Shown one piece after another: positions 46,453-61,009 of a stretch of 64,000 nt of DNA. The stretch spans positions 7,752,001 to 7,816,000 of the forward strand of contig CM097885.1 in the NCBI GenBank assembly GCA_044892525.1, in the 5' to 3' direction. Within the stretch, counting starts at the first letter, position 1. Every line of letters begins with the position of its first letter. The position numbers were made by a program, and so were the translations under genes. This DNA comes from Schmidtea polychroa (taxonomy: Eukaryota). Under the pieces are notes generated by a model. It had not been told where the DNA came from, made no database searches, and saw nothing but the letters and a program-made list of their open reading frames with translations.

Positions 46453-46914
46453 TTAAATGTATATAGTATGATACTCATTAATATACATTGAACATGCTTT
46501 ACATTTGCGAACATTTGAATCATGGCATTTAGAACATACAATTACATGTCCGCAAGGTAAAAACAAAACCGATACTTGATTTTCTTTACAAATGTAACAA
46601 GTTAAATACATTTTCCTACCATCATTGAGTTTTTTCCTTAGCTTATTTTCAATCAATTCGGATTTCGATATCCATTCATAAATCAATCTACTACTATATC
46701 CTGGTTCCAGCCTTAAATCCATACAATTCCAAAAGCATTCATTCAATGAATCATTATCTACTATTGCTTTGTCTAAATGCATCAAATAAATCGATAACTT
46801 CAAAATGCATTTATTGTAATTAAATAAATCAATCAAATATCCAATGGAGGAATGTTTGAAAATTTCTAAAATTTTTATGGTTTCCTTTTCAGTGAGAGTA
46901 TCATAATTGTTCAT
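46453..46914 (-). CDS. IAP-type C3HC4 RING protein (putative E3 ligase), no BIR visible
   Basis: C-terminal CYICKENQVSVLFLPCGHVIVCSKC..CKAC..IYI follows the IAP RING consensus including the terminal aromatic residue. Confidence 0.85.
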   Translation of the reverse strand: MNNYDTLTEKETIKILEIFKHSSIGYLIDLFNYNKCILKLSIYLMHLDKAIVDNDSLNECFWNCMDLRLEPGYSSRLIYEWISKSELIENKLRKKLNDGRKMYLTCYICKENQVSVLFLPCGHVIVCSKCHDSNVRKCKACSMYINEYHTIYI

Positions 46915-46970
46915 AAAATCTTCAACATAGTATAAACATAATTATTTTTTCATTTTAATTATTTTCAACC

Positions 46971-47370
46971 ATGTCGGAAAAAGGTAAAATATGAATTTTA
47001 TGTTTATTAATTCTTTTTTTTTTTTTTTTTTTTTTATTTAGCATATATAATCAATTTTTTGATTGAAAAATTAGAGGAAATATCTAATGTAAAAATTAGA
47101 GAATTTATGAATGTTCCAGAGAAATTAAAATGGCCGTATTCAGACGATGAAATTAATGAAGATGATATGTCATATGAATCTGAAAATATTTCCCAGCAAG
47201 AAGATGAATATACTGATTTGCCTAGTGAAGAACTTAAGTCATGTATTGAGAATTCTACAACAGATAAATTACCAAATGAATCTAAACAAGAAGATGAATC
47301 TATTGTTTTTACTAATTGTATTGATCATATTGTTGAAAATATAATGAAAAGAGATTGTATTGAAGATTAA
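46971..47370 (+). CDS. Acidic orphan protein, spliced (exons 46971-46983, 47042-47370)
   Basis: MSEK|AYIINFLIEKLEEIS..CIDHIVENIMK; homolog with the same phase-1 intron at 60116-60436. Confidence 0.78.
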
Positions 47371-47442
47371 TAAATTTAAAACTTTAGTTATTTTCAATGA
47401 TTTAAAAACACCAAAACACTAATAAAGATGTATTAAATAAAT

Positions 47443-48037
47443 TTAACATGAACAATGTTCCTCTTCAAACTTATCTTCGGCTTTTATAATTTTCCAAATT
47501 GGTTTGATTCGGTCTCTGCTTACATTATACCCTTGAATTAATATGGTAACCATGCAGGTTATTTTGCTCATCTTACCACCATTGGGAATCATATCCAAAT
47601 CGTTTCTAATGAACATATCTTCATCATCAAATTCAATATTTTCATTGATCCTCTGAAATAATTGTCCCAATAGCATCTTGTCGTGAAACTTGATTTTGGA
47701 AAGTCTCACATTGTAGAAACATTTTTCCAGAGTTACTGGTTCCTAACAATAAATAATAATAATAATAAAATCCAAAATAATTTATAGAAACTTACCTTAA
47801 ATGTATAGGAAATTGGACAATACAAATAATTTAGTTTGTATTGCATGAATTCGACTGGTTTTTTTGTATCCACTCGAACATTGACCAAGGTTTCCGTGGA
47901 TAATGTCGCTTCTTTAAATTTCCTTTTTCAGAATTCTTGAGCGGCATCTGCATTTTTTCTCTTCAAAACTCCTAGATTAAAAAACTACTAAATGGAATAT
48001 GTGTAAACGACAACAAACCTGTAATTTGATTATCCAT
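47443..48037 (-). pseudogene. Orphan gene X, three exons (48037-48019, 47971-47796, 47742-47443), premature TGA at 47928-47930
   Basis: GT-AG introns of 47 and 53 nt keep frame; shares TI.IQGY.V..PIWKI with 59563-59982. Confidence 0.68.
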
Positions 48038-48239
48038 TTGTAGTTATAATATTTAATAATTTGAACCAGATATTTTATACTAATTTCATTGTAAACAAGT
48101 TTCAAGTGACAGGCATGATCAAAACGTGATCAACTAGTTCATTTTATGCTAAATAACAAAGTCTGAAATGATTTATTGTACACAAAGAAATATTATAGGT
48201 TAATTAAGGTTATCACAAAACAAATATAATTATATTTTA

Positions 48240-48626
48240 TTACAACAATACATTTTTTCGCAATTCCACAAGTAATGCATGAATTATTTCTCGTTTCTGT
48301 AGATTTACAAAACATGTACAACTATCATCCCCACAAGTATTCTGCATATTATTTTTACAAAAATCACAATTTTCAACATCATCGGTATAACATGTAATCG
48401 TAGCATGATCCATATGAATTAAATCTATTACATTTATTCCAGTTATTTCATAAATTTTGTAAAACACAACTTCTGGAGCACAATACATTAAGGAATTGTT
48501 CAAATTCGGATAAAAATCTTCAATTTTATCAATCAAAATTTTTAGTATAGTTTCTAAACAAAAATCAGTAAATTTAAAATAAAAACAGTTACCTTCATGT
48601 TCAATCATTGTTGAATAAATATTCAA
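48240..48626 (-). CDS. Cys-rich orphan gene Y
   Basis: FYPNLN..IYEITGINVIDLI..CTC..ELR aligns with YYPELN..VYNQTRIWIFDII..CSC..TLR at 58898-59307. Confidence 0.7.
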   Translation of the reverse strand: MNIYSTMIEHEGNCFYFKFTDFCLETILKILIDKIEDFYPNLNNSLMYCAPEVVFYKIYEITGINVIDLIHMDHATITCYTDDVENCDFCKNNMQNTCGDDSCTCFVNLQKREIIHALLVELRKNVLL

Positions 48627-49113
48627 GCAAATCCTCGTTACTTATATTTGAAGAAATTGTTAAAGATCCAATCAAATCCTTTACATCGTTTATAATTCCT
48701 TCAACAATAGTATGAAAATCTAAATTTTTAATACCTAGTACAACTATTTTACCACTCGAAAATATATTTACACATAGTGGATTATATTTTGTATAACGCA
48801 GAGCGGGAAATAATTCAGGCTCATATATACAATCTCCATCTAATAACTTTGCTAAATTATTCAAATTAATAGATTGTTCAACCTTGGTAGCTATAGTAAG
48901 ACTTTGAACTTGAATATCTTTGATATTATATTGCAAATTCTCGAATTCGATAGGCTTCTTACAACCCATTATACGACATTTACCATTTTTGAAAAATATT
49001 ATAGTATATTTTCCAGTTTTGTCAACATATTGTTGTGGTTTACACTTGGGGAAATTCATCATACCAACAGTTTCCAAAGACACACGACCTCTATAATTAA
49101 TATTTGTCAACAT
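48601..49113 (-). CDS. TATA-binding protein (TBP)-like, arm A
   Basis: Two TBP repeats: IFFKNGKCRIMGCK and INLNNLA..YEPELFPALRY..P..VNIFSSGKIVVLGIK. Confidence 0.9.
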   Translation of the reverse strand: MLTNINYRGRVSLETVGMMNFPKCKPQQYVDKTGKYTIIFFKNGKCRIMGCKKPIEFENLQYNIKDIQVQSLTIATKVEQSINLNNLAKLLDGDCIYEPELFPALRYTKYNPLCVNIFSSGKIVVLGIKNLDFHTIVEGIINDVKDLIGSLTISSNISNEDLLEYLFNND

Positions 49114-49247
49114 TTCTACTGAATATTTAAAAAATCAAGTATATATATATATATATATATATATATATATATGTTATATTATAGAGTAATTAAATCAATT
49201 TATTTTTTACGATATAAACAAAATTAATTTTTAAATAAATATTAAAA

Positions 49248-59307: not shown

Positions 59308-59437
59308 ATTTTTATGTTGAATTGTTTTGTTTTTGTAAATCGAAATAATAGAAATAATAATAATAATAATAGTAATAGAAATAGTAATAATAATATAAGT
59401 AATAATAGTAATAAAAAACAATATTTATAATAAAAAC

Positions 59438-59528
59438 ATTAATGCAACATTAATGCAAATGACATGCAATTTAAACAAAGACATACAGCAATCTGATTGG
59501 TTGATAAACAATAGTCATAGGTATAAAA
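59438..59528 (+). promoter_or_regulatory. Putative promoter module: octamer, CCAAT box, TATA
   Basis: ATGCAAAT 59453-59460, CTGATTGG 59493-59500, TATAAAA 59522-59528, about 40 nt before ATG 59563; the octamer block is duplicated at about 60033-60072. Confidence 0.55.
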
Positions 59529-59562
59529 ACCCTGTACCATTTCATTTTAATCATAATTCACG

Positions 59563-59982
59563 ATGACAAAGAAAATTTCAAGCACTGAAAAGCCAAAAGT
59601 TGTTCCAGAACTTGTACAACCTGTTCAAATGTTCCACAACTATAAAATGTATTTTTTAAAAGAAGAAATCAATATGAAATTGGCGTCGCCGATCAAGCTA
59701 ATTCCAACTAAATTTCAATTCTTATCCGGCACGCTTTCAATGATAGATATTAAATCTATTGATGAGGTTTTCAAACGGTTGAATACGAATCTATCTTGTA
59801 ATCAACATGCCTGGTTCAACAACAGATATGCAAGATTTTATGATTCCTTTGATGAAATCGGTTTCAAAGAAAACGAAAATTGGTATATAACAATTGCAAT
59901 CCAAGGATATAAAGTAGATAATAATGATGTGTATTCTCCAATTTGGAAAATTATGTCTGCTAGACTTTCACAACTATTTTAA
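59563..59982 (+). CDS. Orphan gene X, arm B, intronless
   Basis: Intact 139-aa ORF; ITIAIQGYKV..SPIWKI shared with the arm A gene. Confidence 0.75.
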   Translation: MTKKISSTEKPKVVPELVQPVQMFHNYKMYFLKEEINMKLASPIKLIPTKFQFLSGTLSMIDIKSIDEVFKRLNTNLSCNQHAWFNNRYARFYDSFDEIGFKENENWYITIAIQGYKVDNNDVYSPIWKIMSARLSQLF

Positions 59983-60115
59983 TGTTATATTTAATAAATG
60001 TATTAGTCATATTTGTTTTTTCTCTTTATTAATTGCAACATTAATGCAAATGACATGCAAATTTAACAAAGAAAATCTATAAACAAACTTATAATATAGT
60101 TTTAAAGTGATGAAA

Positions 60116-60436
60116 ATGACTGCAGAAAAAGGTTAACATGATTAATTAAATACTGAATTATTTATTATTTAGAATTATTAATCAACTTTTTGTTGGAAAA
60201 AATTAGCAGAAATATCTGGTGTAAAAATTGAGGATATATTATCTGTTACAAATGCATTAAATATCGGCTGGGTAGTTGAGAGTCAAGATTCAAGATTTGA
60301 AGGAACCGATACTCAAGAAATTGATGACGAAATCTATGAACCTAAAGATAATATTACGAATGATTGTATTGATCATGTCGTTGAAAATATAATGAAATGT
60401 GGAGATGACGATTGCGAATGTGTTAATAAATTTTAA
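60116..60436 (+). CDS. Acidic orphan protein, arm B, spliced (intron 60132-60172), +1 A in a homopolymer near 60200
   Basis: MTAEK|ELLINFLLEK/LAEISGVKI..NDCIDHVVENIMK. Confidence 0.72.
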
Positions 60437-60480
60437 AATTGAATTATTTTCATTTAAATATACTATTAAAAACAATAACA

Positions 60481-61009
60481 TTAATTTTTATTCATATATC
60501 TACAGAAAATATACATTATAACAACTCCAGTTGTAAGTTTTATAAAGTTTTTCATTTTTCTTTTGATTTCATCAGTTTCTTTAAAATTGCAGGCCAGTTT
60601 ATTTAATACACCCCATCCGCCATTGGCTTCTATCCATGGGGTAAACTTGGACTTGATTATCTAGAAATGAATATTATTAAAATATAGATTATAAAAGAAA
60701 TCTTACTTCTAAAGACCACTGATAATAATGTTCTGAGTCATGTTGACCTTTTGCAATGATTATCTTCATGTAGGTGAATCCTACAATTATCCTTGTCCAT
60801 TTCATGTCTTCATCGAAAAGACACTGAAATATTCTATTGAAGTAATACTTCTTGGTTTCCAGGGATTCCATCTCCATCATCTGCTGATAATCGATATTTT
60901 CACCTTCAATGATTTGTTCGGTTCGATTGATCAGGAAATTGAGGCTGTCGACTATATTCGCGGTGACAATTCCGTTTAGAACATTTTCCATAAAATTTGG
61001 TTGCGACAT
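60481..61009 (-). CDS. Bcl-2 family protein, 160 aa, spliced (exons 61009-60707, 60660-60481)
   Basis: BH1-like LFDEDMKWTRIIVGF, BH2 PWIEANGGW, C-terminal hydrophobic anchor FIKLTTGVVIMYIFC plus RYMNKN; 46-nt GTAAG..TAG phase-0 intron. Confidence 0.88.

Follow-up and report, generated by a model that had tools for sequence, protein, structure and literature searches.

Adenoviruses combine a conserved core with genus-specific host-control genes that lie near the genome ends, in the terminal early regions. Homologues of Bcl2 and IAP have been described in adintoviruses (Starrett et al. 2021, PMC8502044, section 3.2; in the text of Fig. S2 they stand as scattered labels), mosaic genomes have been reported in this virus group (10.64898/2026.10.13.758929), and the Burro long terminal repeat (LTR) retrotransposons of planarians carry a BCL-2 domain (PMC6431247); these statements refer to the portions of the sources considered here. 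Cargo of the Bcl2/IAP type in these elements is already reported, and no account of an alternation between RING and Bcl-2 genes in them was found in the literature searched, a partial collection. The present analysis concerns a 64-kilobase (kb) window of Schmidtea polychroa DNA (contig CM097885.1, positions 7,752,001 to 7,816,000; hereafter the window), which carries two Maverick/Polinton left halves inverted to each other, A (45370 to ~54560) and B (~54763-61989). The gene nearest the terminus encodes a RING protein in A and a Bcl-2-like protein in B, and the original prediction regarded the two as alternative occupants of a single swappable slot.

Our preferred explanation, to which we assign a probability of about 0.62, is that the left-end accessory regions of A and B diverged by inversion and by the gain and loss of single genes, which would make the RING and Bcl-2-like genes separate items of cargo instead of alternative states of a single slot. 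Read from the A terminus, the genes are RING (directed outward), acidic (inward), and then X, Y and TBP (outward), while from the B terminus they are Bcl-2 (inward), acidic (outward), and again X, Y and TBP (outward). As predicted earlier, the acidic gene is reversed relative to the TBP-Y-X block between the arms, which can be read directly from the sequence. The RING gene adjoins the 5' end of the acidic gene in A and the Bcl-2-like gene its 3' end in B; the former aims at its own terminus and the latter away from it, i.e. their polarities are opposite. Neither gene is contained in the gaps between the acidic gene and X (73 nucleotides (nt) in A, 134 nt in B). A fixed slot implies the same flanks, polarity and breakpoints, whereas here the polarity is opposite, opposite ends of the acidic gene are adjoined and there is no common flank. 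The earlier claim of a shared order TBP-Y-X-acidic holds for TBP, X and the acidic gene, which are homologous between the arms (for X and for the acidic gene, 0 of 2000 shuffles reached the observed score), but is less secure for Y, whose likeness is weak (7 of 2000 shuffles).

Nucleotide comparison yielded a single inverted blastn match between the arms (48717-52674 to 58687-54763, 87%), along which identity rises from TBP (0.60-0.66) towards the putative penton gene, part of which reaches 1.00. The corresponding protein identities are 83/138 (60%) for TBP, 193/208 (93%) for the packaging ATPase and 348/355 (98%) for the putative penton, and the terminal regions share short AT-rich matches only. 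Since the core is close but TBP is much less so and the termini do not align, recombination sharing the core, and not the outer block, is likely. In such a process the core would be exchanged between subfamilies, and the left end would gain host-derived regulators and shuffle them; the passage from the A layout to the B layout would take at least one inversion of the acidic gene together with a gain or loss of each of the two outer genes.

The RING/acidic junction of A was compared with public sequencing data, using contigs of four of the 24 listed runs (X1, X3, X8 and X14) over 45300-49240; the results refer to the contigs listed, and none of the runs listed was an RNA data set. The RING contigs of X1, X3 and X8 (737, 738 and 664 nt) match the window up to 46926 and continue with 297-298 unlike nucleotides. 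On the acidic side, contigs start to match at 46927 after 108 (X1) or 325 (X3) other letters, that of X8 starting at 47047, and none of the contigs of these three runs spans 46926/46927. The loose end past 46926, a sequence absent from the window, codes for residues that resemble the extended N-terminus of P0001, a relative of the RING protein. The acidic-side contig of X3 opens with 30 nt that match the 3' part of the RING gene, followed by 295 other letters, at a depth (7.5-8.9) like that of its neighbours; this points to another RING-like piece within the missing sequence. It is thus likely that a deletion brought the two genes of A together in this copy (join at 46926..46927, where the 5' end of RING meets the acidic promoter). 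The copy has likely lost at least ~300 nt, or ~590 nt if the two X3 contigs are adjacent, and the lost stretch probably includes a second RING-like piece.

A is not the sole carrier of RING genes, as P0001-type variants occur in another subfamily in the same runs. Variant letters in contigs over the RING gene gave the P0001 residue at 9 of 16 positions tested, two being silent and five non-matching (16 of the 21 listed rows, each taken singly). Divergent P0001-type RING contigs were found in X1, X3 and X8, alongside B-like acidic pieces. The depth of the latter was 52 in X1, 25 in X3, 418 in X8 and 36 in X14, and that of the divergent RING contigs 65-116, 21-92 and 340-1630 in the first three, with none listed for X14; as contig depth is not copy number, this rough parallel is no more than a weak hint.

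The survey was extended to a metagenome, in which a TBP-profile search gave 80 loci, the best 80 of 131 (median length 2.8 kb, 17 of them at least 5 kb). A RING-family member (153 amino acids (aa)) is present in one of the 80 (L045), where it occupies an internal position between the TBP and ATPase genes. The Bcl-2-like, Y and acidic genes were detected in none of the 80, a result of little weight given the median locus length. Other relatives end in an E2 ubiquitin-conjugating enzyme gene or in a gene for a Cys-rich protein, and the left end therefore appears to be a fluid accessory region. Because the geometry of the arms differs, the join in A is likely a deletion, the RING family is internal in L045 and RING variants occur in another subfamily, a discrete slot is unsupported. 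What stands of the proposed counter-defence cassette is a variable, terminus-proximal region with host-control genes. The supposed identity of position is correct in that both genes are outermost, but not as regards their polarity, the acidic-gene end that they adjoin, or the join itself.

Several points weigh against the independent-cargo explanation. The RING and Bcl-2-like genes are each the last gene before their terminus, ~1 kb inside it. The outermost visible gene of L011, at 225-719(-), encodes an E2 ubiquitin-conjugating enzyme (Pfam UQ_con, 1.7e-12) and is directed outward like RING, so the position may favour ubiquitin or cell-death genes. None of the 80 related loci was seen to carry both RING and Bcl-2. 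The runs X1, X3, X8 and X14 possibly derive from other strains or species, and X14 gives no cover over 46752-47015. The stretch missing between the RING and acidic genes was never itself read, and a return joint from 46926 to 46487 is not among the joints listed, so that both the second RING piece and the 590-nt size are indirect estimates.

The most substantial alternative, though clearly the less probable one, is that RING and Bcl-2 are both present in full-length elements of a single abundant subfamily, and that the contrast between the arms reflects deletions, or a RING gene located elsewhere in B-type elements. The likely deletion at 46926/46927 in A fits this explanation, as does the co-occurrence of divergent P0001-type RING contigs with B-like acidic pieces in X1, X3 and X8, whose roughly parallel depths count for little. 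However, arm B is devoid of RING (the whole window gave one RING match), the 134-nt X-acidic and 73-nt acidic-X gaps are too small for a gene, and the sole clue to the missing stretch of A is RING-like, not Bcl-2-like. It is unlikely that the terminus is a true exchangeable cassette, i.e. a recombination hot spot that takes up RING, Bcl-2 or E2 genes of equivalent purpose. The outermost location of RING, Bcl-2 and the E2 gene of L011 would agree with such a cassette, and so would the G+C content at third codon positions of Bcl-2 exon 1 (0.45), which is above that of its neighbours (0.14-0.36). This is countered by the opposite polarity and different neighbours of RING and Bcl-2, the lack of a common breakpoint sequence (the end of L011 compared with A is not significant, with 66 of 2000 shuffles), the internal RING gene of L045 and the relatives that end in the Cys-rich gene, which has no assigned function.

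An artefact of assembly at a collapsed repeat is very improbable. The 100% identity of the arms over 500 nt could point to it, as could the absence, among the contigs listed, of one that crosses the 46926 join or extends over the stretch as a whole. Single contigs nevertheless cover A from the acidic gene to TBP (46927-49128 in X1), and the RING gene, at near identity; moreover, 12 runs hold at least half of the words of 46420-49240. A collapsed repeat could account for the join, but not for two gene sets.

The RING gene of A (46453..46914, minus strand), whose 5' end is cut at the join, encodes a 153-aa IAP-like protein with a helical, weakly UBA-like N-terminal part and a C3HC4 RING. The description of this gene as a BIR-less RING was confirmed: its open reading frame (ORF) matches Pfam zf-C3HC4_3 above the cut-off (E 3.6e-10), and Pfam scans detected no BIR domain in it or in 12 short relatives. 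The window copy is truncated, but the relatives P0001 and P0112 are likewise devoid of BIR; P0001 (163 aa) is 73% identical to the window protein and has a longer N-terminus. The protein and its short relatives form a family that has a helical N-terminus in common. Its assignment to the IAP type is supported by sequence and profile searches, in which IAP RINGs rank first (cIAP2 6e-17, compared with 7e-10 for MYLIP), but not by fold searches, in which IDOL, MEX3C, BIRC7 and MUL1 are tied for the RING model (pLDDT 90.8). One profile alignment with a BIR-bearing protein extends over 139 columns. The N-terminus alone gives weak profile scores against two IAPs (E 0.0067 and 1.8) and had no usable match in a protein atlas; it superimposes on residues 632-684 of USP5, which we take to be a UBA domain, with Z 4.6 and a root-mean-square deviation of 3.0 over 53 aligned residues.

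All eight zinc ligands are present, and the C-terminal RING is followed by an aromatic tail of IAP-like length. The Pro of the last CxxC is found in 0 of 15 RING-family members, and the linchpin Arg that follows it in 1 of 15 (Lys in 3 of 15); these members were picked by their N-terminal match and are mutually related, and thus do not represent independent events. Among the BIR-bearing hits (12 given, 10 with a readable RING), Pro is present in 7/10 and Arg in 8/10, and among the other hits in 59/104 and 61/104, respectively. According to PMC12326332, in the portion considered, loss of the linchpin Arg lowers RING activity to varying degrees, and XIAP itself has Tyr at this position. Judging from its sequences, the family may therefore consist of weak E3 ubiquitin ligases or of decoys, the two being equally plausible. 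A bolder scenario appears rather doubtful: in TBP-bearing Mavericks, BIR-less IAP-derived RING decoys would dimerise with host IAP ligases without E2 activation, and undergo tandem expansion at the left end, where they would take turns with Bcl-2 or E2 as interchangeable cell-death modules. Still, a compact family of RING proteins without BIR, in which two canonical residues of the E2 side are lost as a conserved trait, is an addition to what has been described, and it could reveal a decoy route for handling host IAPs.

The Bcl-2-like gene of B (60481..61009, minus strand) is real, as originally proposed, and encodes a predicted protein of 160 aa. It has two predicted exons, 61009-60707 and 60660-60481, separated by a 46-nt GT-AG intron, and the span first given for it, which ended at 60689, omits the second exon. 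Exon 1 matches Pfam Bcl-2 (PF00452) below the cut-off (E 7e-4, Pfam positions 6-67 of 100), and all seven of the seven alignment members match this family at E<=0.05. BH1-like and BH2 motifs follow each other in the order found in the Bcl-2 family, with a hydrophobic tail; BH2 lies in exon 2, where the match to the Bcl-xL BH2 region is weak (E 0.79). Three relatives of the protein stop aligning at the predicted donor site. The atlas neighbours of one relative (P0111) are Bcl-2 clusters (0.91) and a cluster containing E1B-19K (0.86). A fold model of exon 1 alone (pLDDT 68) gave no clear structural match.

Both products would likely keep the host cell alive, or delay its death, while the element replicates. 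The Bcl-2-like protein would act by binding pro-apoptotic partners, and the RING protein as a weak E3 or as a dimerising modulator of host IAP-type ligases.

Five accessory genes lie within ~2700 nt in the A element. The acidic gene of A (46971..47370, plus strand) has predicted exons 46971-46983 and 47042-47370 and a TATAAAC box at 46931. Its homologue in B (60116..60436, plus strand) has a TATAAAC box at 60078 and frame shifts in an A-run near 60200; the box and a phase-1 first intron are common to both. Gene X of A (47443..48090, minus strand, spliced, start approximate) belongs to a family common to the relatives, and gave nothing convincing in PDB or PHROGs. Gene Y of A (48240..48608, minus strand) is Cys-containing and has no family match. 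In a control comparison, Y of A (48240-48608) and the acidic gene of B (60182-60436) reached 16 of 2000 shuffles, close to the Y-Y value given above; as Y of A resembles the acidic gene of B about as well as it does Y of B, the sequences suggest that Y and the acidic genes may be paralogues. The mini-TBP gene of A (48601..49113, minus strand) matches Pfam TBP (3.5e-17) and has 107 relatives. The counterparts in B (58312..59982, plus strand) are TBP (58312-58728), Y (to 59307) and X (59563-59982).

The core of A (49248..54560, plus strand) comprises genes for the A32 packaging ATPase, a core-protein-like product, an rve-chromo integrase, a putative penton, a small protein, a putative major capsid protein and a putative protease. 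It is damaged by an internal stop in the ATPase gene (49653-55), an AT-repeat insert in the integrase gene and an internal stop in the putative major capsid gene (53473-75). The core of B (54763..58205, minus strand) is inverted and broken within the small gene that follows the penton. Pox_A32 matches above the Pfam cut-off in both arms identify the packaging ATPase typical of Mavericks, and the integrase matches (rve 3e-5, chromo 3e-4) are below the cut-off. The capsid and protease genes of the arms had no Pfam match; their order is conserved across the relatives, and the labels capsid, penton and protease are our assumption, made from gene order and familiar motifs. The putative penton gene contains a 500-nt stretch (51911-52411) without a single difference between the arms (100% identity), as opposed to 60-66% over TBP; this suggests recent conversion or module sharing. 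A gene for PolB, the protein-primed polymerase of Mavericks, is absent from the truncated arms; long ORFs of polymerase type are found at the right end of the related loci L003 and L011.

Mavericks typically have terminal inverted repeats that start with AG and a 6-bp target duplication. One terminus per element is present in the window; the right ends of A and B are missing, hence no repeat pair or target duplication is visible. The left terminus and repeat region of A (45370..46452, plus strand) begins with AGTAGT and adjoins a truncated Gypsy pol gene whose ORF is open to 45399; its position was set by contigs of X1, X3 and X8 that start there with other flanks. In B, the repeat region with the likely left terminus (61010..61989, minus strand) starts with AGTAGG at 61989 and was placed solely by the start motif AGTAG-N5-TGTGT shared with A; this pattern has two matches in the window against 0.09 expected, but was derived from those two sites. 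At 46414-46418 contigs of three runs carry 35 letters absent from the window. The B terminal region contains TGACGTCA repeats (61885-61960), presumably CRE-like. Outside B, the multi-exon start of a PolB-type gene (62018..64000, plus strand), likely from a third element, matches the N-terminal part of the L003 PolB at 42%; its segment 62018-62912 has small phase-1 introns and starts 28 nt past the B terminus. The window as a whole is AT-rich and of animal type, and it contains microsatellites as well as elements of the Gypsy type, two of which lie tail to tail (37369-41444 and 42184-45399), the right one lacking gag and adjoining terminus A.

The related loci differ from the window in several respects. 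In all 21 loci that have X, this gene lies upstream of TBP (15 on the same strand, 6 on the opposite one) and never downstream as in the window, and of the 14 loci with a close ATPase, two have the ATPase gene divergent from TBP, as in the window. An unnamed Cys-rich family of ~106 aa, absent from the window, occurs in 8 of 80 loci (e.g. L016:480-797(-)); it is distal in six (the outer gene in L001, L014, L016, L019, L026 and L070) and lies beyond TBP in two. L016 additionally carries a dual-specificity phosphatase gene downstream of TBP (4008-4316(+), DSPc 5.7e-20), and in L021 (2621-3296) and L023 (2948-3597) the interval from TBP to ATPase holds small genes in tandem that appear to be paralogues. 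A GC-rich block of A considered as a counterpart of the L011 end was rejected (66 of 2000 shuffles). A search of a viral contig collection gave no relative of ATPase, TBP, RING or Bcl-2, and one 23-nt pattern search of genome contigs gave no match.

That endogenous Mavericks keep several cell-death and ubiquitin regulators suggests an active conflict with host apoptosis, and therefore supports the view that Mavericks behave as viruses. Like adintoviruses and animal Mavericks, the window elements have a packaging ATPase, an rve integrase and capsid-type and protease-type genes. They differ from the adintoviruses of PMC8502044, as far as the portion considered goes, in the mini-TBP, the spliced accessory genes and the RING without BIR, and both arms are devoid of PolB; the whole word "TBP" does not occur in the examined part of the supplement text of that paper. 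The Burro elements are alike in being mobile elements with a BCL-2 domain, but they are retroelements and carry this domain inside a polyprotein.

The C-terminal RINGs of cIAP1, cIAP2 and XIAP (PDB 6hpr, 3eb5 and 4ic2) are the best sequence and profile matches of the window RING and share its zinc ligands and aromatic tail; in contrast to them, the window protein has no BIR and its family has Pro in 0/15 and Arg in 1/15 members. With viral and cellular Bcl-2 proteins the Bcl-2-like product shares the order of BH1-like and BH2 motifs, the hydrophobic tail and the atlas clusters, whereas compared with this family (adenovirus E1B-19K included) its BH1 is divergent, its gene has an intron and its first exon falls below the Pfam cut-off. 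The elements resemble the adenovirus early regions in plan, with a conserved core and variable host-control genes near the ends, but their gene order and polarity have been reshuffled even between closely related elements.

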